In this document: positions 20,461-45,958 of the stretch, piece by piece | How positions within the stretch are numbered: position 1 is the stretch's first letter | How the letters are laid out: every line of letters starts with the position of its first letter | Origin: an uncultured Desulfospira sp. | Lineage (GTDB): Bacteria > Desulfobacterota > Desulfobacteria > Desulfobacterales > Desulfobacteraceae | Direction of reading: 5' to 3' | DNA: 64,000 nt | NCBI GenBank assembly: GCA_963663165.1 | Contig: OY760175.1 | Coordinates: forward strand, 6,464,001-6,528,000 | Translations under genes and position numbers: made by a program | Notes under the pieces: generated by a model | What the model was told of the DNA's origin: nothing | What the model saw: the letters and a program-made list of their open reading frames with translations, nothing else | The model's database searches: none

Positions 20461-20792
20461 GTTACCATATCTCAAAATCTATAAAACCAAAACCGTTTTT
20501 TCATGGCAGAAAGTCGCACCATACTGCCATTCGTTCACTGTCCGCCGCAAGACAGGATAAATACGCCGGCTATGGTTCTTTTTTTATGTGTTTAACACCA
20601 AACCGTTATCTTCGAAATTAAAGTTTTTTTGGGTTTTGTTAGCGCAGATTAAGGATTCTGAGCAAAAATAGCCGGCAAAGAAGCGGTAACCACAAGAAAA
20701 AATGGTTTCTTAAGAACGAATGACAAAATAATAAGCCATAAATTCAATTGGTTATTTCTTTCAAGGCAAAGAGCCTACAGCCTGACAAGAGA

Positions 20793-20822
20793 TCTAATCA
20801 AATTCTAATGGATATATAACAT
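20793..20822 (+). promoter_or_regulatory. Three direct repeats at 11-bp period (Pho-box-like)
   Basis: TAATC 20795, TAATG 20806, TAACA 20817. Confidence 0.45.
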
Positions 20823-20987
20823 ATCTCGGATATAAACATGGGTTAGAATCAAGTTTAACACTGGATTTTTCTAATTCTTTGAAATTATGGGATAATAATT
20901 GATCAAAAAACAAGGAAACAAATCCTCGCCGAAAACTAATTTTTCATTAATTCCCAACTAATATTGGGAGCGTAAAACAGTATTGAT

Positions 20988-21135
20988 CTTGAAAGAAAAG
21001 CCACACCCCGGGTGACCGGGGGTCGGAAAGCCACGGGTCTTGTTTTAAAAAAAGGGAAAACGGGGACAAACAAAAAAATCAAACCCCCCAACATCCAAAA
21101 CTCAAACAAAACAAGACAGCCGCGCCGCCTCACAA
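20988..21135 (+). ncRNA. c-di-GMP-I (GEMM-I) riboswitch with expanded P3 loop
   Basis: AAAGCCACACCCCGG-GTGA-CCGGGGGTCGGAAAGCCACGGGTCTTGTTTT...AAAACAAGACAGCCGCGCCGCC matches GEMM-I architecture (GNRA-capped P2, GGAAAG junction, P3, GACAGCC..GCC). Confidence 0.8.
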
Positions 21136-21178
21136 AAAAAAGTTAGACACAATTTAATTTAGGAGGAAATTTAAGAAA

Positions 21179-21874
21179 ATGAAGAAATTATTTGTAACTT
21201 TTTCGGCGGCTTTCCTGATGCTTTGGGCTGCAGCCGCTGCTTCTGCAGCAAGCTTCGATTATGGTAGTCTTGTTCTAAGCATATACAGCGAAGACACTAC
21301 CACTGAGTATGGCATTGATCTGGGTAGTCTGGATGACTTGATCGCTATGAGTAACGAAACCCTGACGTTTAGTTATAACATTGACACAGATAGTGACTGG
21401 TATGTTGCCCTCTTTTCTAGTACCGGGTCTAACGCATACACTACCACAGTAACTGTCGGAACCACAAGCGCAACTGAGTTAAGCAATTACTGGAGTGTAA
21501 TTTCCAATGCAGCTAACTCCATGACAAAAGTAATGCAATATTACACTGGCCTTGAATTGGACGGTGGGGTGGTTACGGGAAGCACTTCAGACAATAACAG
21601 CTACGCCAAAAATCTGAAAAAGACCTATGGTGGTGTAACGGTTCTCAGTTCTATTGGGGAACTTGATGCCGATTATGTAGACCTTTACCTCTATAATTTC
21701 CTTTACGGTACTGACTACAATACCATTCAGGTAACCGAAAGTGATGCTTTAGCCCTTATTAGGGTATATGCAGACGGTACAGTTGTGATCAACCCTGTGC
21801 CTGTTCCCAGCACAATGATCCTTCTCGGTTCGGGCCTGTTGGGTCTTATTGGAATTAGAAGAAAACACAGCTAA
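21179..21874 (+). CDS. PEP-CTERM (VPVP variant) sorting-domain surface protein
   Basis: Signal peptide, Ser/Thr/Asp/Tyr-rich body, C-terminal PVPVPSTMILLGSGLLGLIGIRRKHS; strong AGGAGG RBS. Confidence 0.88.
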   Translation: MKKLFVTFSAAFLMLWAAAAASAASFDYGSLVLSIYSEDTTTEYGIDLGSLDDLIAMSNETLTFSYNIDTDSDWYVALFSSTGSNAYTTTVTVGTTSATELSNYWSVISNAANSMTKVMQYYTGLELDGGVVTGSTSDNNSYAKNLKKTYGGVTVLSSIGELDADYVDLYLYNFLYGTDYNTIQVTESDALALIRVYADGTVVINPVPVPSTMILLGSGLLGLIGIRRKHS

Positions 21875-21902
21875 CTAAAAAAGTAAAATAAAGGAAAAGA
21901 AC

Positions 21903-23297
21903 ATGTTTAAGAAAATCGTTAAGGGGCTGGTAGTTGGTGGCGCCGGGCTTATCCTGGCCACTTCCGCAGTGCAGGCGGAACAATATGAAATTAATATTTA
22001 CGGGGCATCTGCCCAGTACAAATTCTGGACGGAAGCAGCCCCCTTATTCTTGATTAATCAAGGATGTGATGCCAGCGACGTTTACCATGCTGTAGATGAA
22101 GATCAGTACTCCCGCGATGCCGGTATCGCTTTTTGCGCCGGTTCCGACGCCATTGCCGGATATGAAGGAGAAGGCTTGGGCGGAGAAGGAGATTCTCTTA
22201 TTATCCGGTATACCACCAATGCTTCATATGACGGTATCCGTGCTGTTACAGGCGATACTCAGGAAAATGCCGACGCACAGTATTGTTCTGAATATACCCA
22301 CCGTTACATGCCGGTAGCTGATGATGAGACGGCTAACTACAAACAGTATTCCGCTGCGGACCCTGATCCGGGTGAAGGCCTTGGGGCTTTTGCTTGTTAT
22401 GATGTAAATGTTGGTGCTTCTGATGTTGCCGCTGAAACGTTCAACCAGGAATCCGAAGGATATGCACTTGGATACATACCCAATGATGACGGCTCCTATA
22501 CAACCATGTCTTCAAGTATTAAATACCCGGATTTCCTGAATGATCCCGATATCGACGATAAAGTTGAAGCCAATCAGATGGTCGTTGTTCCGTTTGGTTT
22601 TTATGCCAACAATGGTGGATATCTGGACAGCAACAACGAGCTTCAGACTGACAGCGAAAAGGCGGTTCCTTTTGATAACCTGAGCCGCCTGATGGCCGTT
22701 TCACTGTTTTCTGGCCAGGTGGCCAACTGGGATGACTTTGATCCCGCCCTTGACAGCCAGCAGGTGGTACTTTGTCTGCGTCATGCAGGTTCCGGCACTC
22801 ATGCCACCCTGGATGCTGCTGTAATGCGCGGAGATGCCAATCTGGTAACTGCTCAGGCTGACCCCAGCACTATAATTCCAGTTGCTTTAGGGTATCTGCC
22901 CCAGGTTTGGTTCAACAAAGGATCTTCAGATGAATTAAGATGTGTTGGTAAAAGACTTGGTGCGGTGGGATATGCTGATGCTGATAAATGCACGACCAGC
23001 TGCCAGGCGGGTACCAAATACGGTAAAGTAAAAGCCCTGACATATCAGGGTGTAGCACCGACTGCCACTACCATTAAAAATGGTCAGTATCTGTTCTGGG
23101 CTTCCCAGTATCTGTATGTTGGGGAAGACGACGACGATACCAAAGATTACATTGATGCAATGATCACCTGGGCTGCGGACGGTGCCAACATGGCATCTAA
23201 AAAAGCAGGTTACTGGGCTGCTAAAGACGATATGATGTGGACCAAAAGTGATGATTATGCCTACCCGATAAAAACCGGAGATTACGTGGCAGAATAA
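21903..23297 (+). CDS. Secreted PstS-like (phosphate-binding fold) protein
   Basis: Signal peptide; IYGASA, GASDV, VVPFGF, NLSR...FSGQVANW, RHAGSGT, NKGSS, GAVGYA, NGQYLFW as in PstS/PBP_like_2 proteins; 8 Cys. Confidence 0.65.
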   Translation: MFKKIVKGLVVGGAGLILATSAVQAEQYEINIYGASAQYKFWTEAAPLFLINQGCDASDVYHAVDEDQYSRDAGIAFCAGSDAIAGYEGEGLGGEGDSLIIRYTTNASYDGIRAVTGDTQENADAQYCSEYTHRYMPVADDETANYKQYSAADPDPGEGLGAFACYDVNVGASDVAAETFNQESEGYALGYIPNDDGSYTTMSSSIKYPDFLNDPDIDDKVEANQMVVVPFGFYANNGGYLDSNNELQTDSEKAVPFDNLSRLMAVSLFSGQVANWDDFDPALDSQQVVLCLRHAGSGTHATLDAAVMRGDANLVTAQADPSTIIPVALGYLPQVWFNKGSSDELRCVGKRLGAVGYADADKCTTSCQAGTKYGKVKALTYQGVAPTATTIKNGQYLFWASQYLYVGEDDDDTKDYIDAMITWAADGANMASKKAGYWAAKDDMMWTKSDDYAYPIKTGDYVAE

Positions 23298-23336
23298 AAC
23301 TAAAAACAGCGTGTGCATAGTGTATTGAATGCACGC

Positions 23337-23371
23337 AAGGCGGGCCTGCATAGACAGGCCCGCCTTTTTTT
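23337..23371 (+). terminator. Rho-independent terminator
   Basis: AAGGCGGGCCTG-cataga-CAGGCCCGCCTT followed by T run. Confidence 0.85.
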
Positions 23372-23495
23372 GAATAACCGTCTAACTTATTCCTAATATA
23401 AAGATGTTATATGAAGTGTTTTAACAGGGTTCCGGTGTTGTTTTACTTTAATTTATTTGAAACATATTGAGTCGGTTTTTTTAGGAAAAGTGGTA

Positions 23496-24356
23496 ATGCG
23501 TATGATCAGAAATAGAGTATCTGCGGCATGGGCTGCGATAATTTTTGTTTTGTTGTTGTCAGGGTGTATCAGTTCTCAAGGAGAGAAACCCATTCACGGT
23601 CCTAAAGTGGAGAAAGGAGAATGGGTGAAAGTAAACTATACGTGCAGTGCAAAAGGACAAGGCGTTTTCGAAACTACGGACTCCAATGTCATAAATGATT
23701 TAGACATAAAAAAATCCAGGGTCTTTTCCCCACTGGCTGATCCTAAGCCGGTAAATATTCTGGCCGGTATGGATCAGCCTGGACAGCCGCCGTGGAAACT
23801 TAAAGATATGACACCTGAGATACGTAACAAACTCGCTCTGACTTTGGTGGGCCGTAATTATGGAAGCACGTATGAAACGGTGATTGAATCCGTTGTACCG
23901 GAAGGTATGGAGGACAATAACCGGTATCGGTTTGTAAAAAAAACCCGACGGGTTCCTAGAGTACGGAAGATACCAATAAATGATTATCTGGCCGGACACG
24001 GGAAAATACCTGTGGTAGGGGAAAAATTATATGACAAGGCTGGAAGCGATTCTTTACAAAATCCTTTTGCTACCGTAGTCGCAGTAGACAACAATGATGT
24101 CAGCATAGAGCTAATTGCAGGGAATGGAAATAGATCAGATTTGCCATGGGGAACATTAAAAACTGTTGATAAAGGGGATAAAAACACAGTGACTGTCGTG
24201 TTGGAATCTGAAGTCGGGTTGTTGGTCAGGACAGGACCAGTTGTGGGCAGGGTAGTGGAGATTAATGATAAAACCGTTAAGATTGATTATGGTCACCCGT
24301 TTGCCGGGGAAATTCTAGAGTGCCATGTCGACATACTGGATAAGGAAACAGACTGA
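23496..24356 (+). CDS. FKBP/SlyD-type peptidyl-prolyl isomerase-like lipoprotein
   Basis: Lipobox LSGC; VEKGEWVKVNYT..GVFETT N-strand and IDYGHPFAGEIL C-terminal SlyD motif. Confidence 0.7.
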   Translation: MRMIRNRVSAAWAAIIFVLLLSGCISSQGEKPIHGPKVEKGEWVKVNYTCSAKGQGVFETTDSNVINDLDIKKSRVFSPLADPKPVNILAGMDQPGQPPWKLKDMTPEIRNKLALTLVGRNYGSTYETVIESVVPEGMEDNNRYRFVKKTRRVPRVRKIPINDYLAGHGKIPVVGEKLYDKAGSDSLQNPFATVVAVDNNDVSIELIAGNGNRSDLPWGTLKTVDKGDKNTVTVVLESEVGLLVRTGPVVGRVVEINDKTVKIDYGHPFAGEILECHVDILDKETD

Positions 24357-25579
24357 TGAAACAATGGGTTTATATATTGGTCGTGCTATCCTGTTTTATG
24401 TCGGCCTGTATCTCTACAAAAACAGAGGTCTGCTCAGAGAATAAAGCGCAAATATCTACATCGGAAGAGATCTCCAGTCCTTCTGAAATGGCGGCAGACC
24501 GGAAAGCCGAATTTTCTAAGCGGATCAAAGAGGCGGTCGAAAAGGCACAACAGCAGGGGGCGACAAAGGTAGACATTTACCTTGATGAGGACCCTGATAT
24601 TGTGCAGATAAACGATGTTGTCACCTTACGATATCAGGCTGTCTTAGATACCGGCGCTACCTTGTCGTCAAGCAGTCAGACCCAGATTGTTGCCGGTCGC
24701 CCGGAATCTGTCCCCGGCATCGGCACGGCCGTGCTGGGCATGGGATTTGAGAAAAAAAAGGTCCGGATTAAACCTGGTGAGGCCTTTGGGGAATGGCAAA
24801 AAGACAGGGAGAAACATCTGCCCCGGGTCCAGGCCATACCGGTCCATGTGGAAATAAGCACATCCGCGTTTAAAGAGAAATTTAACAAAAATCCTGAAAC
24901 AGGAGAGCGCATCAGGCTGAATCCATATTTTGAATCTGAAGTGACTGAGATAACCAATGATAAAATTCAGATTAATAATCTGGCCATGGACGGATATAGA
25001 GATAAGGCTTCCTTTGGCGAAACTATGATTACTGTAAAAGACGGGACAATTTTTCTACAGTTGACCCCAGTCATTGGCGCCGAGTTCCCCTTGGGCAAAC
25101 AGAAGGGGAGGATTTCATCCTATGGAGGCAACACTTTTATAGTCGACCTGAACCACCCTTTGGCCGGACATGCTCTTGATCTGAATATCGAAGTGACCTC
25201 TATTGTCAAAGCCTCTGATGCGGCCAAAAGACAAATCCCCTGGATCACCGATTATGATACCGGAATGGAACAGGCTATGGCCCAGGAAAAAGACATGGTT
25301 TTGGTTCTTTACGCATCCTGGTGCCCCTGGTGCAAAAAGCTGTTAACCCAGACCTTTGAGGACCCCAGGATAAGGCTGCTCAATGATAAGTTTGTTTTTG
25401 TTAAAGCCAATTCCGAAGAAAATACGGACTTAAAAGAGGTCTATGAGCAGGATGGGTTTCCCCTAACGGTATTAACTGATCCCGGGGGCCGGGTGATCAG
25501 AAAATTTGAAGGTTTTAAAAACGCCCCTCAGCTTTTATCGGAACTTGAAGCGCTTCTAAAATCTAACTCTCGCAGCTGA
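24356..25579 (+). CDS. FKBP/SlyD-type lipoprotein fused to thioredoxin-like domain
   Basis: Lipobox MSAC; PGIGTAVLGM..IKPGEAFG, VDLNHPLAG; C-terminal YASWCPWCKKL..GFP. Confidence 0.78.
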   Translation: MKQWVYILVVLSCFMSACISTKTEVCSENKAQISTSEEISSPSEMAADRKAEFSKRIKEAVEKAQQQGATKVDIYLDEDPDIVQINDVVTLRYQAVLDTGATLSSSSQTQIVAGRPESVPGIGTAVLGMGFEKKKVRIKPGEAFGEWQKDREKHLPRVQAIPVHVEISTSAFKEKFNKNPETGERIRLNPYFESEVTEITNDKIQINNLAMDGYRDKASFGETMITVKDGTIFLQLTPVIGAEFPLGKQKGRISSYGGNTFIVDLNHPLAGHALDLNIEVTSIVKASDAAKRQIPWITDYDTGMEQAMAQEKDMVLVLYASWCPWCKKLLTQTFEDPRIRLLNDKFVFVKANSEENTDLKEVYEQDGFPLTVLTDPGGRVIRKFEGFKNAPQLLSELEALLKSNSRS

Positions 25580-25595
25580 TAAGCCTGACAACGCC

Positions 25596-27179
25596 ATGCA
25601 CCGGGAAAAACATTATTTGATGAAATATATTCACCTTCTGTTATTGGTCTGGATTTTTTACCTTTTTCCATTCTTAAGCCATGGGGCGGAGCCTGAACCG
25701 GCGGCAGAGGATAAGGTTACTTTTGCTATCTATTCTTACGATATTAAAGGAAACACCCTGTTGGACAGTGGCACTTTAATTGAGGTTCTGAGTGAATTTA
25801 CCGGGTTTGGAAAAACAGCTCAGGATGTGGAGTGGGCCAGGGACGCCCTGGAAGCGGCTTACCATGAAACGGGTTTCCCCACTGTTTTGGTCAACATTCC
25901 AGAGCAAACCGTGGAAGACGGCAAGGTGGTACTTGAAGTGATTGAAAGCCGGATCAAACGGGTCCTGGTAACCGGGAACAAGTATTATACCATGGAACGA
26001 ATCAGAAGCGAACTGCCCAGTGTACAGCCCGGGAAAGTGCTTTACCTGCCAAAGGTCAGAGAAGACCTTGCCCGGCTGAATAGCAGCCCGGACTTAAAAG
26101 TCGGCATGGTATTGATCCCCGGCCGGGAGCTTGGGTTTATCAATGTCGAACTCAAGGTTGAAGACAACCTGCCCCTCCACGGCAGTCTGGAGCTGAACAA
26201 CCGGTGTACCCATACCACTACAGACCTGCGGTTAAACGGGGCGATTCATTTCGACAACATATGGCAGAAAAGCCATTCCCTTAATGCCCAGTTTCAGGTC
26301 TCTCCCGAAGATACCGAGGAAGTTCTTTTGTTTACCGGCTCCTATGCCCTGCCCATGCCCTGGAGCCAGAATCACATGCTCATTGGGTATTATGTGAATT
26401 CAGACAGTGATACCGCTACCGGCGAAGGCCTCTCGGTCATGGGCAAAGGGCAGGTGATCGGACTGCGGTACATGGTGATGCTGCCGGGCACCCCCGCATA
26501 CTCCCAGAATGTGATTATAGGCCTGGACTGGAAAGATTTTGAAGAAGAGATAGAAGGGGTAATTACCCCCATCGAATATATGCCGGTATCCTTTGGATAT
26601 GCCGGCACCCTGTCGGATTCAGGCGGGACCACCCAGTTTTCCGCCGGGCTTAACATGCTGTTCCGCCATAATGCCTTCAGCGGTATGGAAGAGTTTACCA
26701 ATAAGAGGGAAGGGGCTACGGGAAACTATATTTATCTGACTGCCGGTATGGAACGGCGTCAAAAGCTGCCCAAAAATTTTTCCCTGTTTGCGAAGTTGGA
26801 CGGTCAGGTGGCAGACCAGCCCCTGGTTAACAACGAGCAATTTTCCGTGGGGGGGGTGAATTCGGTCCGGGGGTATATGGAAAGTGAACTGCTCGGAGAT
26901 TATGCCATTCATTCGACCGTGGAGTTTTTTGGTCCATCACTGATGAAGAACCATTTTATAATGCCCTATCTGTTTTACGATTGTGCCTGGATCGGAACCA
27001 GGGAACCTCTGGACGGGGAGTATGGCCAGACCTTTATCCATGGTGCCGGTATTGGTATCCATGGCGAATGGAAAAAAATAATTGAGTTTAAACTGGATTG
27101 GGGAATGGCTCTCAAAGATACCGATGATACCAAGCAAGGCGACCAACAAGTCCATTTTAAGGTCTCTATAAAGTTTTAA
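25596..27179 (+). CDS. TpsB (ShlB/FhaC/HecB family) two-partner secretion transporter
   Basis: Signal peptide, POTRA (GNTLL, AY...GFPTVLVNIPEQ), VRGY loop-6 motif, terminal Phe. Confidence 0.9.
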   Translation: MHREKHYLMKYIHLLLLVWIFYLFPFLSHGAEPEPAAEDKVTFAIYSYDIKGNTLLDSGTLIEVLSEFTGFGKTAQDVEWARDALEAAYHETGFPTVLVNIPEQTVEDGKVVLEVIESRIKRVLVTGNKYYTMERIRSELPSVQPGKVLYLPKVREDLARLNSSPDLKVGMVLIPGRELGFINVELKVEDNLPLHGSLELNNRCTHTTTDLRLNGAIHFDNIWQKSHSLNAQFQVSPEDTEEVLLFTGSYALPMPWSQNHMLIGYYVNSDSDTATGEGLSVMGKGQVIGLRYMVMLPGTPAYSQNVIIGLDWKDFEEEIEGVITPIEYMPVSFGYAGTLSDSGGTTQFSAGLNMLFRHNAFSGMEEFTNKREGATGNYIYLTAGMERRQKLPKNFSLFAKLDGQVADQPLVNNEQFSVGGVNSVRGYMESELLGDYAIHSTVEFFGPSLMKNHFIMPYLFYDCAWIGTREPLDGEYGQTFIHGAGIGIHGEWKKIIEFKLDWGMALKDTDDTKQGDQQVHFKVSIKF

Positions 27180-27212
27180 GATAACGAAGCTGGCGTAAAA
27201 GGAACAGGACCC

Positions 27213-30200
27213 ATGACATATAGTTTAAGACGGGCAGCAGGACAGATGCTTCTGATATACCTATGCCTTTATCTCAGTATTTTCCCGGGAGCGGCCTTTG
27301 CCAAACCCATCAAAGCGTCCAGTCTGACGGCCCCTGCATCCGGTACCTTGCCGGTTCTTTCATCCGGCCAGACCCAAAGCGGCTGGAGTACCTCCCAGGA
27401 TGACAGTACCCATTATCTTCAGGTGAATCAGACCAAGACCAAGGTGACCATTGAGTGGGATTCCTTTGATATCGGATCCAATGCATCTGTCCATTTTGAG
27501 CAGCCGTCATCGGGTACGGCTTTGAATCGGATTTATGACAGCAGCCCCAGTCAGATTTACGGCAAGCTGACAGCTACAGGCAATATTTATCTGATTAATC
27601 AGAACGGTATCGTGTTTGGTGAAGGGTCCAGGGTTAATGTGAATTCTCTGGTAGCCTCTGCCCTGAATATCAGCGACGAAGATTTTACGGATAGTGACGG
27701 AAATCTTTGGCATTTTACGGCTGAGAATTATCAGAACAGCTCAGGTTATGAATACTCAGGGGTTGGCGATGTGACCAATAACGGGACACTGGTTTCAGAC
27801 AGTGAGGGGCGTATTTTTCTTCTCGGGTCAACCGTAGTCAACTCGGGCACCATATCTGCCGAAGGGGGCTGGATTGTTCTTTCAGCCGGCACTGAGTTTG
27901 AAGTGACCAGTTCCGTCAATACTTCCGGGTACCTTATTGAGAATATCTCAACTGACTATTCAGGGGACGTGACCAATACTTCTGACGGGGAAATCCTGGG
28001 GGATAAAGGGGATATCGGTATCTACGGGAAAATTATCCGCCATAACGGGCTGATCCGGTCCCTGTCCACAGTGCGTGAGGGCGGTGAAGTCAAACTGGTG
28101 GCATCTAAGAAAATCACCACCGGTAAAAATTCATCCATTAATATGGGGGTTGAGGAACTGGATGATGAAGAATTGGTTGAAAATCCGTTTTCCGGCAGGG
28201 ATCTAACTTTTGAAAGTGCAGACGGTGATACTGGTATTCTGATTGCCCATTACGGAGATATCACCATGCCGTCCGGGGATGTAACCATGGATGCCGGTGA
28301 AGGGGGGCGGGTTTATCTTGGAGACGGTTCTACCATTGATGTTTCAGGGTCCTGGTCGACCAAGGAAATGGCAGAACTTGTTGCATCCATCCAGCTAAAC
28401 TCTATAGAACTTCGAGATGAATTTAATCAAAAAAACGGTAACCTGAAAGGAGAAACCGTTTATTACCTGCTCAATGAAGGGGTATCCATCGGCAATATTT
28501 CTGAAGCCCTTGAGAGCCGGATATTATCGGCTTTAGAAGAAAGCGCCCAGGGCGGTACGGTAACCTTGAGCGCCGGAACCGGTGATATCATTGTTGACGA
28601 AGGCGCTTCCATAGATATTTCCGGGGGCGGGGTTACTTACAATGGCGGCTGGGTTACCACCACCAAATTGGTGAGCAATGGTGTCGTATATGACATTTCA
28701 GAGGCTCCGGATAACCTGGAATATGATCAGGTGATCTATGATACGAAAAATTATCAGGAATATATCAATACCTTTAAAGAAGGGGAAGATGCAGGCTCTC
28801 TTTCCATCACTGCCCAACAGATTGTTTATGAAGGTTCTCTGGATGCTTCTGCTGTCCAGGGAACCTATCAAGTTAATGAAACAGACCCGACGGATGACTT
28901 AGGGTATACCACCTGTGTGGGAACGGTGATTCCAAGCGGTGGTACCCTGACCATTGGGGCGTCAGCTACCGCAACAGATGAATATTACATTTACAATGAT
29001 CCCGTGGTGCAAGCCATTGTGATCAAAGATACCACATCCGGGCTTGAGGATGATTTTGATCCAGAATCATCGGAGATCGATAGCTCCCGAAACGGAGAGA
29101 CCTGGTTGTCTGACGATCTGTTAAGTGATGCCGGATTGAGTAATGTCAACCTGTATGCCACCGCTTATGTGGTAACAGAGGCCGATACTGAAATCACTCT
29201 GACTGCCGGGGGGAGCCTTGATGCCATTGCCAGGCGGATTTATCACCAGGGCGGCATTTATGTGCCTTCCGGGGATGTCAGTTTTCTTACTGTCTCCAAT
29301 AAATCCTCTGACCAGTATCTGGATGGGAAAGAAAATCCAGATTATGTGAGTGAAGATGATCTGGGCGGGCCGGAACGGATCGAACTGGCTGCAGGAAGTA
29401 CTATTTCTGCGGCAGGGGAACAGGTGAACAACCATACCGCCGTTTCTAATAAGGATTATGAATCCTGCCAGAGTACTGCGTTGACCGACGGGGGCAGCAT
29501 CACCCTGACGGATAATACCAATTCGGGAGACGGCGTGGTGGTCCGAAAAGGGGCGAATCTGGATGTTTCCGGAGGGTATATTATCGGCGTGGATGAGGAT
29601 TTGGACGATGCCGGGGATGCCGGCCAGATCAGTCTTTTGGGGTCTGCCATTGTGTTGGAAGGAACATTAAGCGCCATTTCCATGTTGGGGCAGGAAGGCG
29701 GCACCATTTCCCTGACCGCTTATGACGTTACGGTCAAAAAATCGTATTCCTCATCAGCGTCAAGAGCGTTTTCGTGTGGCCAGGAATTGCCCGAAGCGTA
29801 TCAGTACAGCTTAATAGTGGATGATGATATTTTTGATGGCACCGGTTTCACCCACATCAGTTTGACTTCGTATTCAGATCTTACTGTGGAAAAAGGGGTG
29901 AATCTTGAGCCATCTGCCACAAAATGGGTTCTTCGTAATGGGACAATAGAGACCCAGGAGATAGCGGAAGATGATTTTTATCATATTGGTGATACTTCCA
30001 TTTCCCTTGTTGCCGGGGATGACTCAGGGTTCCCTGATATGTACAGTTTTGCAAATGAATTGACCTACGGCACCTTAACCATTGAAGAGAATACCCGTAT
30101 TACAGTGGGCCCCCAAGGCAGTATTTCTTTGTCTGGTGATTATGCCTATATCTCAGGAGTCTATACGGCGCCCGGCGGTGACATTGATGTGAGCGGCGGC

Positions 30201-36950: not shown

Positions 36951-36975
36951 ATTGATTTCAATGTGGAGGAAAAAC

Positions 36976-38790: not shown

Positions 38791-39194
38791 GACGAGATCT
38801 TTTTCAGCAGGAAGATTTTAACGATATCAACTTAAGCCCCTTGCTGGACCTTGCCTGGACCCTGCTGGTGGTATTTATCATTGCGGTGACGGCTTCGGTT
38901 CAGGGAATCAAGGTTAATTTGCCCAAGGCCAGCAATGTGCCAAGCCTGGTTAAGCCCAAGACCAAGGCCATTACCATTGATGACCGGGGCCAGCTTTACC
39001 TGGATGCCTATCCCGTGACCATGACCGAACTCGAACAGAATCTGAGAGCCCACAAGGCCGTGGACCCCGATTTTCCCGTGGTGATCAAGGGGGATGCCAA
39101 AATCTATTACCAGAATGTCATGGATGTACTGGATTTAATGCAGAAACTTGAAATCACTCAATTGGGTCTGGTCACCCAGAAGCTGGTTAAATAA
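38787..39194 (+). CDS. exbD: ExbD/TolR biopolymer transporter
   Basis: INLSPLLD TM with conserved Asp, I-VNLPKA, VIKGD..Y..VMDVLD, LGLVT. Confidence 0.92.
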   Translation: MRRDLFQQEDFNDINLSPLLDLAWTLLVVFIIAVTASVQGIKVNLPKASNVPSLVKPKTKAITIDDRGQLYLDAYPVTMTELEQNLRAHKAVDPDFPVVIKGDAKIYYQNVMDVLDLMQKLEITQLGLVTQKLVK

Positions 39195-39198
39195 GCAC

Positions 39199-39897
39199 AT
39201 GGCCCGGTTGACTGACAGTCGAAAAAAGATCCTGGTGATCGGGGTGTCCTGCCTGGTGATGGTCTGCCTGATTTTTACGGCGTTTATCGTGATGAAAATG
39301 CTGCTCAATGATGAAGGCAAGTCCAGGAAACGGCAGATTCAGCGGGTGACGCTGGTTAAACCGCCGCCGCCGCCGCCCAAGATCAAGGAAAAACCCCCGG
39401 AGCCGGAGATCAAGAAAAAAGAGGAAATCGTTGAACCTGAGCTGGATGAACCGCCCCCGGAAGATATGGATTCCAGTGACGAACCGCCTCCGGGAGAAGA
39501 TCTGGGACTTGATTCTGACGGCACCGGCGGAGCCGACGGGTTCGGGCTCAGGGCCAAAAAGGGGGGGCGGTCCCTGATCGCCGGAGACGGCGGCGGAAAA
39601 AGATCCCTGATGAAACAGTATGCCTGGTATACCCGGATTCTGCAGGATGAAATCAGGGAAAAGGTCAACAAGTACCTTGAGGATAAAGAGGGCCTGCCCT
39701 CAGGCAAACACCGGATCATGATCCGGATTGAACTGGACCCCAATGGAAATCTGGTGAAGGCGTCTATTTTCGGATCAAGCGGAACTCCGAAGGTGGATAA
39801 TGCCGTGGAGCAGGCCATGGCAGGATTCAGGGCCAGCGAAAGCCCGCCTGAAGAGATGCCCAGGATATTAAAATTGAAAGTGACATTTAAAAGTTGA
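39199..39897 (+). CDS. tonB: TonB/TolA-like energy transducer
   Basis: N-terminal TM, PPPPPP/EP-rich linker, TonB_C-like GSSG-PKVDNAV..A, PPEEMP. Confidence 0.8.
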   Translation: MARLTDSRKKILVIGVSCLVMVCLIFTAFIVMKMLLNDEGKSRKRQIQRVTLVKPPPPPPKIKEKPPEPEIKKKEEIVEPELDEPPPEDMDSSDEPPPGEDLGLDSDGTGGADGFGLRAKKGGRSLIAGDGGGKRSLMKQYAWYTRILQDEIREKVNKYLEDKEGLPSGKHRIMIRIELDPNGNLVKASIFGSSGTPKVDNAVEQAMAGFRASESPPEEMPRILKLKVTFKS

Positions 39898-39919
39898 AAA
39901 AATCACAGCCAAGGAACCG

Positions 39920-41716
39920 ATGATGAAGGGTAGATTAAACGGATTGAAAAGGAAACTGACCGGTATTGCAATTGTTGTGCTGCTTGCGGCGTTGAGCATG
40001 CCGATCGCCTGGGCCGATGAAAAGGCTTCAGGGGCGGACTTAGACAGTACCCTGGCCTTGATTGAATTGTTAAAGGACAAGGGCGTGATCAATGAAAAAG
40101 AAGCCTCATCCTTTCTGGACAGGCTCAGGCTCAAGGCAGAGGCAAGCCGGCAGACCGTTCATATCCTTCCCGCCCGGGATCAGGAAGATATCATGAAAAA
40201 GGTCACTGCCCGGGTAACAAAGGATGTCACAAAGCAGATTAATGATACTCAAAAAGAAGCCTATGCCACAAACCAGTACATGGCCCGGCGTTCCTCGCTT
40301 TTGGAACAGGAAGTGGAAGACCTTAAAGATGCCCTGTCAAAGGAAAAAAGTGTGCGGGAAAAATCCTGGGCCAACCGGATACGGTTTGGGGGGGATATCC
40401 GGCTGCGCCACGAGTCAGTGCTTTATGAAAAGGGAAATGCCACGGATATTGAAGACCCCAGTGATCCGGATTCCTATCTGAATACCACCAATGATGAACA
40501 CCGCCAGCGGGTTCGCCTCAGGCTCGGCCTGACCGCCACCGTGGTCAAGCCAAAGGATATTGGCGAGCTGTTCGGCCTCAGGGAATGGGAAAAGGTGAAT
40601 GCCGGCCAGGTGGATGTGGGCGTCCGGGTGGCTACCGGAAGCGTTGGGAACCCGGTTTCCACCAACTACACCTTGGGAGATGATGACAGCACCCGGTCTG
40701 ATATTGTTTTAGACCGGGCTTACCTTCAATGGTCCTATAAACCCAGGGAAGGGGTCTGGGGCGGAAAGTTCCCCCAGGCAATGGTCACCGGCGGCATCAT
40801 GGCCAACCCCTGGTATACTTCCTATTCCACTCTGATCTGGGATTCGGACCTGGCCTTTGAAGGACTGGCTTTAAACTTTACCACCGACACCATTGAGGTC
40901 AATCCCTTTAAAGCTTTTTTGACCCTGGGATATTTCCCCATCCAGGAGTCTGAATGGAACCAGGACGACAAGTATATGCTGGGCGCCCAGGTCGGCTTTT
41001 CCCTTAAACCCCTCAGAGGGTGGCAGGCCAAACTGGCGGCCGGGTATTACGAATATTACAATGTGGCAGGCCAACTTATTACCGACACGTACCGGACCAG
41101 GGAGGATATGTACAAACTCCAGGCCATGACACCAAAATTTATGCAGAAGGGAAACACCACTTTTTTGATGGATCGGACCACAATTTACTACGACGGTATC
41201 AGTGACGACGCCTATGAGGAGTACGGGCTGGCATCAGAATTTAAGCTGATTAACATCACCGGCCAGATTGACAACACCTATTTCTGGCCGGTTTACGTCA
41301 CCCTTTACTGGGACTGGGTAAGGAACCTCGGATATGATGCCGGTGAAATGGCGGATAAAATCGGGGTCTCTGCTTCGACCATTAAAGAATGGTCCGGGGA
41401 TACCGGATATCAGCTGGGGCTGAGGGTCGGGTATCCCAAAATCAAGAAACGGTGGGACTGGAGCCTTTACGTGGCCTACCGCTACCTTGAAACCGATGCG
41501 GTTCTGGATGCGTATACCGATTCGGATTTCATGGGCGGCGGGACCAATGTCAAGGGATTTATTTTTGGCGGCGAGCTGGGCCTGATGAAAAATGTCTGGC
41601 TTGCGGCCCGGTGGATGAGCGGGGATGAGATTACCGATTTTGAAGCCGTGTCTTCAGATCAGGATGAGGATTATGCCGTGGATATTTTACAGGTTGATCT
41701 GAACGCAAAATTTTAA
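39920..41716 (+). CDS. Putative outer-membrane porin (Porin_5-like) with N-terminal coiled coil
   Basis: Signal peptide, L-DKGVI, FGGDIRLRHE, R-RLRLG, PVSTNYTLG, WDSDL-FEG, DAVLDAYTDSDF-GGGTN-KG, ends DLNAKF. Confidence 0.8.
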   Translation: MMKGRLNGLKRKLTGIAIVVLLAALSMPIAWADEKASGADLDSTLALIELLKDKGVINEKEASSFLDRLRLKAEASRQTVHILPARDQEDIMKKVTARVTKDVTKQINDTQKEAYATNQYMARRSSLLEQEVEDLKDALSKEKSVREKSWANRIRFGGDIRLRHESVLYEKGNATDIEDPSDPDSYLNTTNDEHRQRVRLRLGLTATVVKPKDIGELFGLREWEKVNAGQVDVGVRVATGSVGNPVSTNYTLGDDDSTRSDIVLDRAYLQWSYKPREGVWGGKFPQAMVTGGIMANPWYTSYSTLIWDSDLAFEGLALNFTTDTIEVNPFKAFLTLGYFPIQESEWNQDDKYMLGAQVGFSLKPLRGWQAKLAAGYYEYYNVAGQLITDTYRTREDMYKLQAMTPKFMQKGNTTFLMDRTTIYYDGISDDAYEEYGLASEFKLINITGQIDNTYFWPVYVTLYWDWVRNLGYDAGEMADKIGVSASTIKEWSGDTGYQLGLRVGYPKIKKRWDWSLYVAYRYLETDAVLDAYTDSDFMGGGTNVKGFIFGGELGLMKNVWLAARWMSGDEITDFEAVSSDQDEDYAVDILQVDLNAKF

Positions 41717-41727
41717 GGGGAAGGGTC

Positions 41728-42432
41728 ATGCGGTTAAAAATAATAAAAATCCTGGTGGTTCTTTTTATGTTGGCAGGCCTGTGCGGTTCAGCCTATTTCT
41801 GGAATGAAATGACCAAACGGGATGACCGGATTGCGGGTTTGAACAACGAGCTGGATGTCGCCAACACACAGCTGAGGGCTGCCCGTAAAAAATATACCCA
41901 GGAAAAGGCAAAGCTCGGGACCTGCATGCGGATGAAAATGGCTGAAGAGGCCAAAAAGCTTCAGTTTCAAAAACGGGTTAAGTTACTGGCCGAAGAAATG
42001 AAGGTTCTTGTGGCCCAGAATGAAGTGCTTGTGAAAAAACTTGAGGTTGCCGCAGCTTCCCTGGAAAATAAAGACAAATGGATAGAGGCCTATAAATCCA
42101 AAGTGGCCAAAATGGATGAGCGGTATGAAACCCTTGTGGCAAAGTACAAGGAGGCCGTGGTTCTGGACAGAAAGAAAACAGGTGACATCCGGCAACTGGA
42201 AGCTCAAAAGAAAGAAGTTGAATCAGAACTTGCCTTAACTCAAAAAAGCCTTGAGCGAAGCATCGGCCATAACAAAAGGCTTTGTGAACTTTCCGAGGAA
42301 CTGGTGGACAAATATTGGGATAAGAACAAAGACAAGGCTGAACCCTTTACTAAAATCGGGATGGTTGAACTCGAGCATCTGGTTCAGGAATATATTAAAC
42401 AGATTGATAAGGAGCAGATAATTGAGCAATGA
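41728..42432 (+). CDS. Membrane-anchored coiled-coil protein
   Basis: N-terminal hydrophobic segment, long heptad region, C-terminal N-RL..L..EL..KY...EPFT-IG-VELEHLVQEY. Confidence 0.7.
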   Translation: MRLKIIKILVVLFMLAGLCGSAYFWNEMTKRDDRIAGLNNELDVANTQLRAARKKYTQEKAKLGTCMRMKMAEEAKKLQFQKRVKLLAEEMKVLVAQNEVLVKKLEVAAASLENKDKWIEAYKSKVAKMDERYETLVAKYKEAVVLDRKKTGDIRQLEAQKKEVESELALTQKSLERSIGHNKRLCELSEELVDKYWDKNKDKAEPFTKIGMVELEHLVQEYIKQIDKEQIIEQ

Positions 42433-43562
42433 AAGGCGGGTTTAAATTTTTGTTCGTTTCCGCTGTTTTGCTGGCCTGGGCAGCTGGGGTTCCGGCCTCT
42501 GCCCAGGTTTTAAAATTAAGCTATGATCAGGGGGCTGTGAGCCTGCAGCCGGGACGGGCATCTGTCGCATCCATTCTGGAAAGCCTGGCAGACTTGGCCA
42601 AGGTAGAGATTTATATCACAGAACCATTTAAAGACTATTCAAATGATTTAGAATTTAAGCGGATTCCCCTTGAATCGGCCCTGGAAAAATTACTCAAAGA
42701 TTATAATTATGCCGTGATTTACAATCAGAGTACGGCTGAACCGTTCAGATGCTTTGCCTATACGGATGCTGATGCTTTCAGCCCGGTTGGCCGGGGCCGG
42801 ACAGGCAGCGGCACCCCGGGAAAAAAACAATGGAAATCCCCTGGGGAAACCGGCAGGGACCGTCATGCTATTGGCTTTTTTCCGGGGCAGGACGGCCAGA
42901 AATCAGGGAAGAGCGGCCAAAGATTTGGTTCAAAAAGTTCTTCGGATATAAGGTCAAAGGCGGGCGCCGCCGGGGCGTTCAATCCATCGGAAAATGCTGT
43001 GGCCCATAATGATGATGCATCCTTGGAAAACAGTGAATCAGATGATTCAGCCTATGATACCGACAGCAGCTTGGGTTCCGCTGAAAGCGGATCAACCGGT
43101 TCTATTTCCAGTGGAATTTCTCAAAGCAGTACCGGTTCACAGGACAGCAGCACCACGGCCCAAACCGTCGAGGACGCTTCAACTCAGACCGCCTATATCA
43201 ATTCATCAGATGAATCCGACGGCACTTCAGATACCGGTATCGATGAATCTGACCCATCGGATACTGATGATTCGGGCAGCTCAGGTTCCGATGATTCAGG
43301 TTCAGAAAGCAGCTTCGCTGAAGACGTTGATCTGGCAGATGGAACGGAAAATCAGACCCAGACGGCGGAAACAGACGCCACGGCATCACAGATCGCAAAA
43401 CTTGAATATCAGGTTGAGAAGCTGGAAGAGGATATCTCAAGCGGAAGGGCAGAGAAGTTCTGGAATTTATGGACTTCAAAGAAAGAAGCAAAGTATGTCT
43501 ACAGCCATGTGGATGACCTGGCCGCCAAAAAAGCAAAACTGGCTGAATTGAAAGGTGAATAA
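42429..43562 (+). CDS. Exported protein with STN/secretin-N0-like domain and Ser/Asp-rich linker
   Basis: Signal peptide; SVASILESLA...F-RIPLESALEKLLKDYNY; long S/D/G/T low-complexity region; helical C-terminus. Confidence 0.6.
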   Translation: MKGGFKFLFVSAVLLAWAAGVPASAQVLKLSYDQGAVSLQPGRASVASILESLADLAKVEIYITEPFKDYSNDLEFKRIPLESALEKLLKDYNYAVIYNQSTAEPFRCFAYTDADAFSPVGRGRTGSGTPGKKQWKSPGETGRDRHAIGFFPGQDGQKSGKSGQRFGSKSSSDIRSKAGAAGAFNPSENAVAHNDDASLENSESDDSAYDTDSSLGSAESGSTGSISSGISQSSTGSQDSSTTAQTVEDASTQTAYINSSDESDGTSDTGIDESDPSDTDDSGSSGSDDSGSESSFAEDVDLADGTENQTQTAETDATASQIAKLEYQVEKLEEDISSGRAEKFWNLWTSKKEAKYVYSHVDDLAAKKAKLAELKGE

Positions 43563-43607
43563 AATTAATCCCTTCAGCCGGAGTACCAGCAGTCTTTTAA
43601 AAACCTA

Positions 43608-44141
43608 ATGAAAGGAAACCGCAGTATGTACAAACAAACAGCATGTCTGGCCATCGGCGTTATTTTTATTTTACTTTCTGCCTGTACCGGAATGGCCGGC
43701 AGCAAGGTCGGGTATATTGACCTTAAGCGTCTGGTCCAGGAGTCCACCCTGGGCAAAGCGGCCATGGCCGATATTGACCGGTTAAGGCAAGAAAAGCAAA
43801 AGCCCATTGCCGAGTTGCTTAAAACGATCAATAACATTAAAATTGACCTTCAGGCCAATGAAGAGTTGTTCAAAAATGAGGAAAAAAGAGAAAAGGTCGA
43901 TGAACTCAATGACCTGACCAAAGAATATAAGAGAATGGTCGCCGATGCCAAAGAAGAGATCCAGAAACAGGACCGGGACCTGGTGGCCCAGATCCTGAAA
44001 AAGGCGGACAGCATCGTTAAAGCCGTGGCTCAGAAAAATAAATACACCATCATTCTCAAAGATCCCCAGGCCATCGGGTATCTTGATCCTTCCGTGGATA
44101 TTACAGACGAAGTCCTGGCAGAACTTAATAAGACAAATTAA
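43608..44141 (+). CDS. skp: OmpH/Skp periplasmic chaperone
   Basis: KVGYIDL, S-LGKAA, helical body, VA-KNKYTIIL..Y-DPSVDITDEV. Confidence 0.85.
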   Translation: MKGNRSMYKQTACLAIGVIFILLSACTGMAGSKVGYIDLKRLVQESTLGKAAMADIDRLRQEKQKPIAELLKTINNIKIDLQANEELFKNEEKREKVDELNDLTKEYKRMVADAKEEIQKQDRDLVAQILKKADSIVKAVAQKNKYTIILKDPQAIGYLDPSVDITDEVLAELNKTN

Positions 44142-44725
44142 TTGTTGATGAAGCCCCGGTCCAGATGCGTGTCCACATACCGGGCCAGGATTTCGGCTGT
44201 CTGGGGCGGGGGGTTGACTGTCAGGTAGTGGTCTATGATGGAGTGGGCCAGTTCGTGGGCCAGCATGCCCTGGTGAAGGTCCTGGACGTTGAGGTAGATG
44301 GCGTTGGTCTTGAACCGGTACCAGGCCCTGAGCCGGCATTCTCCGGAATAGATGCTCTCATATGCTTTCTTTAAGGCCTTTTTATCCGGGTAAACAAAGA
44401 CGGTGACCGGATCATCGAACAGTTTTCTCATGTCCAGAATTTCCTGGGCCCGGGTGAAAATGGCGTCTACTTTTTGAGTGACCATATCCTCAATCTGCTC
44501 ATGGGTCAGGTCTTCGAGTTCCAGGGACCGGTTCAGGTCCAGGGGGCCGAATTCTACGGCCGTGTGAAACCGGGCCAGATCCCGGGCAGATTTGTATTTT
44601 ATAATGGTGTGCTGGGTTTTGAGAATTCGCCAGGAAATAATGTGGATTTCGTCCGCTCCGGCAGATAATGGGCAAACCATTAAGATAAGCAGCGCAAGGT
44701 GTATGGCCAAAAAAGGAGTTTTCAA
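44138..44725 (-). CDS. Exported protein with HExxH (zincin-like) motif
   Basis: TTG start, signal peptide ending AGA, LAHELAH followed by downstream Glu (TAEILA). Confidence 0.65.
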   Translation of the reverse strand: MKTPFLAIHLALLILMVCPLSAGADEIHIISWRILKTQHTIIKYKSARDLARFHTAVEFGPLDLNRSLELEDLTHEQIEDMVTQKVDAIFTRAQEILDMRKLFDDPVTVFVYPDKKALKKAYESIYSGECRLRAWYRFKTNAIYLNVQDLHQGMLAHELAHSIIDHYLTVNPPPQTAEILARYVDTHLDRGFINN

Positions 44726-44750
44726 AGAAAGCCCTGCAGGGTTCTTAGGA

Positions 44751-45323
44751 TTAGTTATTCAATTTAAACTGGTTCCTTATGTCGGATTTGAGAGCGGCGA
44801 TTTCCTCGCCCATACGCCCGTTGTCCATTCCTTCTATCTGTGAAAGCCTGGCATCAATGTGAGAGATTTTTTCATGCATGGAAGACGTCATCTGGTTTAA
44901 TGCCGTTGATATGTCGGACAACTGGTCTTTTTTGCGCAGGTTGACCTTTACCCTGAGATCCCCCTGGGCCACTTCCTTTATCCCTTTCTCAAAATGGAAA
45001 AGCGGGCCCGCTATTTTGTGGGAAATAAAGAGCATGACGGCCATGGAAAACAGGCAAATCAGGCCGAGGGTGACCAGGTTGGTGACCAGGACAGCCGGAA
45101 GGATGGCCTGACCCGTGCTTTTAATCTCAAGCCTTGAATGGGCGTAACAGGAGGTCAGGCTGTCCTGGGACAGTGAGAACAGCAGGATGGTTGATATCAG
45201 AATCCCTGCCAGGACAATGAGGCTGAATTTCAGGATAACACCGGCCTGAAATCTTTTTTTAATGAAATATTGGTTTCTTTTGCACGGTTCTTCCTGACAG
45301 GTTGCCGTCCGGGTTTGGTTCAT
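44751..45323 (-). CDS. Two-TM HAMP domain protein
   Basis: R-QYFIKK-FQ N-terminus, two TMs, SHKIAGPL...GDL....LRKKDQL HAMP. Confidence 0.75.
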   Translation of the reverse strand: MNQTRTATCQEEPCKRNQYFIKKRFQAGVILKFSLIVLAGILISTILLFSLSQDSLTSCYAHSRLEIKSTGQAILPAVLVTNLVTLGLICLFSMAVMLFISHKIAGPLFHFEKGIKEVAQGDLRVKVNLRKKDQLSDISTALNQMTSSMHEKISHIDARLSQIEGMDNGRMGEEIAALKSDIRNQFKLNN

Positions 45324-45364
45324 GATTCTATCCTTTTTAAAAAGCTAACAGCTAAAACCAACAG

Positions 45365-45958
45365 CTATAAAAGTTCGTCGTATACTTTGATGTCGGCTTT
45401 ATTCTTTAAGCTGTCCACCCATTGATCGATAAGGGCGGCCTGTTTTTCCTGTTTAAGTTTTTGAGCAATTTTTTGTTCTACCTGCTCTATAGGCGGCAGG
45501 TCCTTTTTCTGGGTTTTCAGTTGATCATACCGGGTTTTTATTTCCTGGTCCGTGACAAAGGTTTTGGTTTGAATTTCTTTCATCTGGGCTTCCATGAGGT
45601 TTTTGATCAGGGTGGCTTCCCAGTATTTTTCAATGGTCCGGATAAAGGATTGTTCCTTGTCCATTTTCCGGCTGACCGCCTCCTGGATCAACAGTTCCTG
45701 CCGGATCATCCGGTCAAGAAATTCTTTTCTTGCCTTGGCCGTGGCCTTGTAGGTTGAATCGTACTCCAGCTCCCGGACAAATCCGGCTTCGTATTCATCC
45801 AGTGTCAGTTCGTAGCCGTTGATTCTGGCAATAACCTGTTGGTCCGGATTTGAAGGCGTTGTTGAGCAGGCCGGCAAATAAAAGGCCAGGAAAATTGCCC
45901 CGCCCAGAATTCCGGCGGCAAAGGCCCTTTGGGACCGGGTGCTGCTGTGAAAAAACAT
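45365..45958 (-). CDS. SurA N-terminal-like chaperone lipoprotein lacking rotamase domain
   Basis: Lipobox LPAC; VIARING-E-T, L-RMI-QELLIQEA, VTDQEI-Y, W--SL-NKADIKV. Confidence 0.7.
   Translation of the reverse strand: MFFHSSTRSQRAFAAGILGGAIFLAFYLPACSTTPSNPDQQVIARINGYELTLDEYEAGFVRELEYDSTYKATAKARKEFLDRMIRQELLIQEAVSRKMDKEQSFIRTIEKYWEATLIKNLMEAQMKEIQTKTFVTDQEIKTRYDQLKTQKKDLPPIEQVEQKIAQKLKQEKQAALIDQWVDSLKNKADIKVYDELL

Follow-up and report, generated by a model that had tools for sequence, protein, structure and literature searches.

A TonB-box-like strand at the C-terminus of TpsA in a conserved two-partner secretion, Ton motor and porin locus of an uncultured Desulfospira sp.

The sigma-VreI (PUMA3) region of Pseudomonas aeruginosa comprises lapA/lapB, pdtA and the run phdA-pdtB-exbB2-exbD2-tonB4-PA0696-PA0697-PA0698-PA0699 (genes listed in PMC2729926; lapA/lapB in PMC7035377, PMC9769906; papers cited by PMC number are drawn on in excerpt throughout). 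A comparable gene block is analyzed here from an uncultured Desulfospira sp., within a 64,000-nucleotide stretch of contig OY760175.1 (hereafter the window; coordinates refer to it and to its plus strand unless stated otherwise), where positions 20793 to 45958 encode a two-partner secretion (TPS) pair, TpsB and TpsA, together with an ExbB-ExbD-TonB motor, a porin and putative surface proteins. In several genera the TPS, ExbBD and PA0696 homologs stay together, and in other genera several vreAIR-tpsA clusters share one machine (PMC2729926). PhoB binds the pdtA and phdA promoters (PMC4971064), and PdtA and PA0696 are among the proteins most enriched at low phosphate (PMC9769906). Virulence in zebrafish was retained when tpsA, tpsB, the tonB homolog or PA0696 was mutated singly (PMC2729926); the excerpted text of PMC7035377 calls this Ton system "still uncharacterized" and reports that Hxc secretes LapA. 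Appendages rich in PstS/DING proteins and linked to Hxc are also known from P. aeruginosa (PMC2242829). The core gene set is hence already known from that species, where it is induced by phosphate starvation and has been without a mechanism since 2009. No account of the motor's target, of the PEP-CTERM link or of the deltaproteobacterial version was found in the literature covered, mainly open-access papers judged from listings and excerpts.

Type V secretion is held to be energy-independent and TonB to act on plugged barrels, and a TpsA with a TonB-binding strand would join both. A described system close to such a junction is HxuA/HxuB/HxuC of Haemophilus, likewise a TPS fibre for nutrient capture that depends on Ton energy; the same source describes type V export as proceeding without outside energy (PMC5422565). 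In Hxu, the target of TonB is HxuC, a receptor of its own with a plug, whereas the present locus has no receptor gene and the candidate strand lies on TpsA itself. As for the motor, DUF2341 figures in the excerpts of PMC12505986 as an unexplained appendage of ExbB.

With the sigma-VreI region, the locus shares TpsA/TpsB, a private ExbBD-TonB set, a putative porin, the protein following it, a peptidyl-prolyl isomerase (PPIase) and an adjacent PstS-type protein, as far as the excerpted gene lists go. TpsA, TpsB, ExbB, ExbD, TonB, the porin and a coiled-coil protein stand in one block, as in the PdtAB-ExbB2D2-TonB4-PA0696 cluster. The link to the PAO1 cluster is drawn from gene order in the papers and from a Klebsiella plasmid that has the P. 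aeruginosa gene order and carries homologs of the ExbB and the porin of the window. The likeness, and the open state of the mechanism in P. aeruginosa, had both been pointed out in a preliminary description of the window, and both hold (PMC7035377, PMC2729926). Unlike the P. aeruginosa region, the locus contains no sigma/anti-sigma, YbjN or hxc genes; from the PUMA3 signalling set only an STN-like protein is seen, with no sigma or FecR open reading frame (ORF) among the locus genes. An FKBP-thioredoxin protein takes the place of the PpiC-type PPIase, and, in contrast to P. aeruginosa, the locus has a PstS-fold family that is rich in disulfides and not of the DING kind, a PEP-CTERM gene whose passenger domain is new, and a riboswitch of the cyclic di-GMP (c-di-GMP)-I class. 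Phosphate-starvation control is documented for the P. aeruginosa region (PMC7035377, PMC2729926, PMC4971064), while here Pho-type boxes are its counterpart at sequence level. The variant encoded here is set apart by a binding-protein family of its own, by a novel PEP-CTERM domain and by riboswitch control, and what is new about it is the TpsA tail strand, a plug-less stalked porin, a phosphate-type site in the binding protein and an unnamed, adhesin-fused PEP-CTERM domain. If true, the reading developed below would provide a mechanism for the long-unexplained P. aeruginosa pdtAB-tonB4 cluster and for its relatives in at least four phyla.

TpsA (27213..36950; 3245 aa, very acidic) harbors a TPS domain and a DUF3739 domain by Pfam, and TpsB (25596..27179) a POTRA domain and a ShlB barrel of the Omp85 kind, an architecture that places the pair in type Vb. 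The end of TpsA is made up of a flexible linker, a nine-residue TonB-box-like strand (W3228-F3236, WVDVEVVGF; 36894..36920, plus strand) and an acidic tail. The pattern of this strand recurs in 46 of 54 complete TpsA C-termini and can be recognized in four Proteobacteria records, in five TpsA genes altogether; among 17 full-length relatives, few residues reach a conservation of at least 90%, W3228 being one of them. When the tail was modelled with the C-terminal domain from the locus's TonB (39148..39897, likely start near 39199; TonB_2, TolA-like, by Pfam and NCBIfam), the predicted complex scored 0.62, against 0.00 for the best control, with a 37-row alignment in each case. The mark that it passed was reached by 116 of 157 solved pairs and by 2 of 215 mismatched ones, counts that apply only approximately to the alignments used. 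Separate runs shared at least 86% of their contacts, the partner having a predicted local distance difference test score (pLDDT) of at least 50. At the modelled interface, residues 3225-3239 of the tail lie on the last strand of TonB in antiparallel orientation. Covariation points to the same contact: the top of 1710 inter-protein pairs couples tail position 36 with TonB position 89, which are direct cross-strand neighbours in the model. F occurs with F at these positions in all seven rows concerned (7/7) and in none of the other 30, and a charge swap at positions 35/88 was unmatched by 5000 permutations.

Several points weigh against this contact. TonB boxes pair in parallel, unlike the antiparallel modelled pairing; the partner pLDDT is just 50-53; the complex controls were run without the other Ton-family proteins of the genome; and, strand addition to TonB or TolA being a theme among solved structures, the passing score may reflect that likeness. 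Neither is the covariation independent, because the same alignments fed the model. Six other charge pairs were null and ten other contact pairs ranked 445th or lower; the F/F state needs three changes on the tree, with one origin possible, and the charge swap belongs mostly to one clade. With these points set against the motif, the model and the coupling, TonB is predicted to grip the C-terminal strand of TpsA, and the evidence points to this strand, rather than to the porin, as the target of the motor. As the contact names about ten mutable residues, the question of what the motor acts on is directly testable. The predicted arrangement resembles that of TonB-dependent transporters, in which a short strand likewise extends the sheet of the TonB C-domain. 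It differs from them in that the strand sits at the C-terminus of a type Vb passenger, that the barrel is 16-stranded and plug-less, and that the modelled pairing is antiparallel.

It can tentatively be proposed, with somewhat less than even confidence, that the locus encodes a motor-driven surface system for phosphate capture, in which the motor would pull the TpsA tail to run the capture. Low phosphate would induce the machine operon, and c-di-GMP would switch on a two-gene unit made of the PEP-CTERM and PstS-fold genes. TpsB would export and display the TpsA fibre, N-terminus first, and the last TpsA strand would stay in the periplasm, held according to the model by the locus's own TonB. 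The PstS-fold protein, probably exported by a type II system as LapA is, may pick up phosphate outside and attach to TpsA or to a PEP-CTERM coat. Pulling driven by ExbBD would then cycle the fibre, with phosphate being released at the plug-less stalked porin and passing through it to an ordinary Pst transporter. The coiled-coil protein and the porin stalk might brace the motor across the periplasm, and the FKBP and thioredoxin lipoproteins might be responsible for TpsA folding and for disulfide formation in the binding protein. More broadly, and again as a tentative proposal that stops a little short of an even chance, the locus and its relatives may constitute a Ton-energised type Vb family. 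In such a family TpsA would itself be the TonB substrate through a C-terminal TonB box, the fibre and the stalked porin would replace the plugged receptor, and the cargo would be an exported PstS-fold carrier with a coat-forming PEP-CTERM domain.

The porin (Porin_5; 39920..41716) bears on where the motor acts. Its model (pLDDT 78.5) consists of a small helical domain with two short helices, a 64-residue helix forming a stalk, and 16 barrel strands, the plug being absent; no Plug or TonB_dep_Rec match was found on it in Pfam, and the 22-stranded plugged barrel of a receptor is not seen. Without a plug, it would therefore be a poor TonB-gated receptor. Sequence profile (E=7e-4), Foldseek and VIA-align (Z 25.8, rmsd 2.8, 288 aligned) all put OmpM1 of Veillonella parvula (8BYM/8BYS) first, while a single-sequence search of the Protein Data Bank (PDB) gave no match. 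OmpM1 likewise has a long N-terminal helix and a 16-stranded barrel; the window's porin differs from it in being encoded beside a Ton motor and in having no SLH match in a whole-protein Pfam scan. Two features vary little or not at all: a basic ladder on the first strands, as in anion-selective porins, and an acidic patch near 494-504. By its model, the porin is an OmpM-like barrel of 16 strands with a stalk and no plug, and not a TonB receptor. A strand at its N-terminus was considered as a TonB target and set aside: the pattern V-x-V-x-Y-[VI]-P occurs in Proteobacteria and is degenerate or absent in several delta-type porins.

The likeness to OmpM1, an attachment porin and the closest solved fold, also suits a structural role, in which the stalked porin, the coiled coil and the TolA-like TonB would stabilise the outer membrane of phosphate-starved biofilm cells and anchor an adhesive fibre, the PstS-fold protein being a surface or matrix part comparable to the PstS/DING appendages. 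The TonB_2/TolA-like type of the TonB, the c-di-GMP riboswitch, the adhesin fusions described below and the known DING-rich appendages (PMC2242829) all fit such a tether. It is nevertheless improbable, as a complete tolQRAB-pal operon lies elsewhere in the genome, an SLH domain was not found on the porin by Pfam, and the invariant ligand site of the binding protein and the phosphatase neighbours of some relatives suit a working phosphate binder.

This binding protein (21903..23297; 464 aa, PBP_like_2) has a signal peptide and 8 Cys, and its model (pLDDT 90.7) has the type II periplasmic binding protein fold, with PstS proteins as the top Foldseek matches. Its R-H-A-G-S-G-T motif aligns with that of PstS 4EXL. 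The aligned relatives, 46 of 46, keep S36, S108, D174, R293, S297, G298 and T299 without exception, along with C55, C128 and C291; by motif likeness, S36, S108 and D174 are presumably ligand residues. The thioredoxin encoded nearby would fit these cysteines. Fold and ligand-site motifs are shared with PstS and DING proteins, from which it differs by about 150-200 extra residues, several invariant Cys, the lack of a DING N-terminus and the lack of an adjoining permease. No PstCAB partner occurs in the locus, a DINGGG-type N-terminus is not present, and DING structures are reached only at E 0.1-0.5 by sequence profile. The sequence defines a new PstS-fold family with an invariant site of the phosphate type.

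Set against phosphate capture as the purpose of the motor are the following observations. Two ordinary pstSCAB operons with their own PstS occur elsewhere in the genome, and no physical link was seen between the binding protein and TpsA or the porin. Among the structural matches of the porin, OprP comes second (Z 20.5, rmsd 3.5, 304 aligned), on a level with general porins. The Pho-type box at the PEP-CTERM promoter (20792..20824) is not conserved, being found in 2 of 60 related regions at 11 bp and in 3 at 9 bp. Finally, in 41-kb stretches from Klebsiella, Cupriavidus, Burkholderia and Variovorax, a PstS-fold gene was unseen with the delta-type profile and the record tables, the two means applied, and TpsA was likewise unseen in the 41-kb Cupriavidus stretch.

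Upstream of the binding protein, the PEP-CTERM gene (21179..21874; PF07589) encodes 231 aa with the C-terminal motif, transmembrane helix and basic tail of an exosortase substrate, and an exosortase is encoded in the genome. The passenger domain of about 180 aa is unnamed: 0 of 58 members match Pfam, no PDB match was found, and the best Atlas match (0.88) is to unnamed clusters and serves as a lead only. It is single-copy among the ORFs of the genome, including 89 PEP-CTERM-like pattern hits, some of them false. A further copy forms the N-terminus of a protein of more than 600 aa in 14 of 72 loci, and the seven such fusions that were scanned carry immunoglobulin (Ig), InlB-type or MBG repeats. 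The passenger of the fusion is closest to that of the neighbouring PEP-CTERM protein in 10 of 13 testable cases, which suggests a co-assembling or co-sorted surface module. Long Ig- or MBG-repeat fusions are found at L047:3308-8836, L050:3316-7662, L053:4651-8373 and L099:14255-18949. Passenger look-alike N-termini in Methylomagnum and Aquabacterium, recognized by eye only, were undetected by the delta profile. The PEP-CTERM and PstS-fold proteins might be, as the preliminary description held, the abundant surface subunits.

Such a module would also be expected if the motor energised biogenesis, TonB holding, releasing or proofreading TpsA during export, or driving the assembly of a coat made of PEP-CTERM passenger, adhesin and PstS-fold protein. 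This nearest rival, which corresponds to the export/assembly reading of the preliminary description, is rather unlikely, yet the same TonB-tail prediction applies to it. The reuse of the passenger at the N-terminus of Ig/MBG-repeat proteins and its kinship with the neighbouring copy are as for co-assembling subunits, and the dedicated folding catalysts, the separately terminated two-gene unit with its c-di-GMP switch, and the exopolysaccharide (EPS)/exosortase genes near the locus in several relatives also agree with it. On the other side, type V translocation needs no outside energy according to PMC5422565, a 16-stranded porin-like barrel would be narrow for folded, disulfide-bonded cargo, and type II genes, which export LapA in P. 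aeruginosa (PMC7035377), stand beside several loci.

The preliminary description had further suggested a link to PEP-CTERM sorting, which is not supported as a general one; in its broadest form the machine would be an outer-membrane route for all PEP-CTERM proteins. A single machine copy in a genome with so many PEP-CTERM-like hits, and an exosortase in 24 of 25 machine genomes, could be read in this way. The idea is however hardly credible: an exosortase occurs in 126 of 301 genomes of the class, and 102 of these 126 lack a strong porin, so that the machine is not a general PEP-CTERM route. Machines are also found in records without an adjoining PEP-CTERM gene, and none of the genome's other PEP-CTERM proteins has the linked passenger domain.

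The preferred reading, a motor acting on TpsA for phosphate capture, also draws on the linkage of these genes. In the window, 13 plus-strand and 3 convergent ORFs were confirmed at the coordinates and in the order first reported, and most of the co-oriented run and convergent trio also by Pfam (PEP-CTERM, PBP_like_2, POTRA_2 with ShlB, TPS with DUF3739, DUF2341 with LamG and ExbB, ExbD, TonB_2, Porin_5, OmpH, HAMP and SurA_N). Apart from ExbB and ExbD, each core gene occurs just once in the 6.74-Mb genome. The order kept in Desulfobacterota and Nitrospirota is PEP-CTERM, PstS-fold, FKBP(-thioredoxin), TpsB, TpsA, DUF2341-LamG-ExbB, ExbD, TonB, Porin_5 and coiled coil. The co-occurrence of the genes goes far beyond chance. 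Among the 301 genomes, porin matches at E<=1e-10 occur in 36, namely 25 strong (E<=3e-60) and 11 weak (E>=1e-17), and the PstS-fold family profile matches 25 at E<=1e-40, 24 of which are common to the strong-porin set; since these counts include kin and are not independent, they are given without a p-value. For the PstS-fold protein, the best 80 of 139 genome loci were taken: 72 have TpsB, TpsA, DUF2341 or porin, 66 have an FKBP, and 76 have the PEP passenger domain, a count that is partly circular because the profile was built from 57 of those loci and the window. At 54 of the 56 loci of at least 15 kb, a machine gene is present. The taxa covered are Desulfobacterales, Desulfobulbaceae, Geobacteraceae, Smithella, Syntrophobacteraceae and Nitrospirota, and a near-identical relative, L041, comes from an uncultured Desulfospira sp. 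Type II secretion genes lie directly beside L100, L109, L110, L148 and L150 (Smithella, Nitrospirota, Cupriavidus, Aquabacterium), the call for L100 being by gene-size pattern only.

Porin loci delimit the core. Tallies per locus include genes lying under opposite-strand ORFs. From metagenomes, the best 80 of at least 496 loci were retrieved and the 32 with at least 6 kb upstream were used: DUF2341, ExbD and TonB occur in 31, the TpsA C-domain in 28 and the coiled coil in 28, and accessory genes are rare (STN 2, SurA 2, Skp 1). In 24 genome porin loci, some of which stop at contig ends, the coiled coil is found in 23, STN in 8, Skp in 8, SurA in 2 and HExxH in 2, one of the two SurA/HExxH loci being from the same genus. 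As STN, Skp, SurA and HExxH are scarce and the coiled coil is nearly constant, the coiled coil marks the end of the core. What had been listed as further parts of the machine, namely STN, Skp and the convergent trio, are local additions; the trio is likely a co-regulated neighbour.

Outside these groups, plasmid records of Proteobacteria were matched by the ExbB fusion (12) and by the porin (13), and seven were examined. The Methylosinus record shows STN-sigma-FecR genes, TpsB, motor, porin, coiled coil, PPIase, YbjN, TpsA and a PstS-fold gene. In Aquabacterium, a secretin and pseudopilins, a PEP-CTERM gene and a 426-aa protein with PstS motifs (by eye, with no Pfam match) precede the machine, while the Methylomagnum record has a PstS-fold gene, TpsB and TpsA with PhoX, an alkaline phosphatase and phoU nearby. 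Different PstS-fold proteins thus adjoin the same machine in Methylosinus and Methylomagnum, and one recognized at motif level adjoins it in Aquabacterium.

The STN-sigma-FecR genes that adjoin the machine in the Methylosinus and Klebsiella records raise a further alternative, cell-surface signalling, in which TpsA would replace the barrel receptor and the pull of TonB would signal via a free STN protein to an anti-sigma factor. An STN-like gene does lie within the locus (42429..43562), and several vreAIR-tpsA clusters per machine are reported for other genera (PMC2729926). Signalling is quite improbable all the same, for the locus has no sigma or anti-sigma gene, STN is confined to 8 of the 24 genome and 2 of the 32 metagenome porin loci, and its hits lie under the Pfam cut-off. 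The STN label given at first stands at profile level only: PF07660 is matched by 7 of 13 members, all under cut-off, and the N0 domain of PilQ at E=2.4e-5; a low-complexity tail follows the STN/N0-like domain in this accessory protein. A paralog lies elsewhere in the genome (G000:C1:2924345-2925487; 58% over the N-domain).

Putative regulatory elements would link the locus to phosphate and c-di-GMP, and both the riboswitch and the Pho boxes announced in the preliminary description are real. Six 11-bp units, taken from the two pst operons of the genome, gave a Pho matrix that was scored on 2075 upstream regions. Beyond the two training regions, the dimer ranks are 3rd for ppk, 5th for the trio, 8th for phoU, 14th for the machine operon and 51st for the PEP promoter. 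The best PhoB-like gene (240.9 bits, cut-off 296.2) immediately follows the rank-8 phoU. At sequence level, the locus has three Pho-box promoters. The box before the PEP-CTERM/PstS-fold unit (20792..20824) comprises three 11-bp units and ranks 7 of 2075 as a trimer, and that of the trio lies at 46028..46049 on the minus strand. The box before the machine operon (23380..23401) is specific in spacing: 7 of 46 related regions score at least 12 at 11 bp and 0-2 at other spacings, and 16 of 46 exceed all 20 shuffles (in this test, region L095 was mis-sliced at a contig end). An intrinsic terminator-like hairpin (12 pairs, 9 G-C, with a T run) follows the PstS-fold gene at 23337..23366; as it separates the first two genes, the run likely forms more than one transcript. 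A scan for sigma-70 promoters gave no signal beyond chance. Pho-type trimers also lie upstream of an EAL-CBS-GGDEF gene (15871-17760, rank 13 of 2075) and of another PEP-CTERM gene (63242-63781, rank 9), and might locally link phosphate status to c-di-GMP. Strong boxes precede a solute-binding protein-VWA lipoprotein gene and a GNAT-like gene (G000:C1:2517115-2518869 and 2356470-2357276, ranks 6 and 4).

The c-di-GMP-I aptamer (20990..21132; Rfam RF01051) has a conserved core, a G at the specificity position and a 60-nt A-rich insertion in P3. It reaches 41 bits, the gathering score being 35, and 34.5 bits over a shorter span in a genome-wide rescan. A model built from six other c-di-GMP-I copies of the genome gave 50 matches in 81 sources, and 3 on the minus strand were dropped. 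Of the 47 others, 45 lie at most 1.3 kb upstream of the stop of a PEP-CTERM gene, in the window and 43 of 80 loci. The specificity position is G in 31 of 31 parsed aptamers, with 16 unparsed; one of the unparsed (L107:8959-9049) has an A there by eye and is possibly a cGAMP-type variant. P2 covaries among the c-di-GMP-I copies of the genome, the count being restricted to helices 1-2. More copies adjoin PEP-CTERM genes at G000:C1:3624427-3624521, 5287815-5287906 and 1991967-1992041. In the leaders of L047, L050, L056, L058, L070, L085 and L106, the 5' P1 strand is complementary to the ribosome-binding site some 35-45 nt past the aptamer, and no terminator was seen between the two in these seven; this complementarity suggests a translational ON switch. 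L090, from a record titled Pedobacter, has a Geobacter-like riboswitch and PEP-CTERM tail, and may be a mis-binned contig.

The remaining genes complete the locus. Two FKBP lipoproteins had been proposed. The label is weak for both. The second (24356..25579) is FKBP-like (E ~3e-4 against SlpA/SlyD structures) and by domain matches also carries a thioredoxin domain with CPWC that was absent from the first reading; [WY]CxxC occurs in 27 of 47 relatives, the remaining 20 having CxxC or CxxS by eye. The first (23457..24356) is a paralog of the second with a lipobox by eye, no Pfam match and an SlpA/SlyD-like label that comes from NCBIfam only (E=0.0085). The DUF2341-LamG-ExbB fusion (36961..38790, the longest ORF starting at 36883) and ExbD (38787..39194) precede TonB, and the N-anchored coiled-coil protein (41728..42432), a core component, adjoins the porin in the 23 of 24 and 28 of 32 loci counted above. 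The accessory Skp/OmpH gene lies at 43608..44141. On the minus strand, the trio (44138..45958; 2 of 24 porin loci) consists of a HExxH protein with no family match, a HAMP protein and a SurA-N/EpsD-like lipoprotein, and a paralogous SurA-like and HAMP pair is encoded elsewhere in the genome (G000:C1:4029468-4030804). Beyond the trio, a short repeated element at 46389-46520, with well over 100 translated-level matches genome-wide, lengthens the N-terminus of a methyl-accepting chemotaxis protein ORF.

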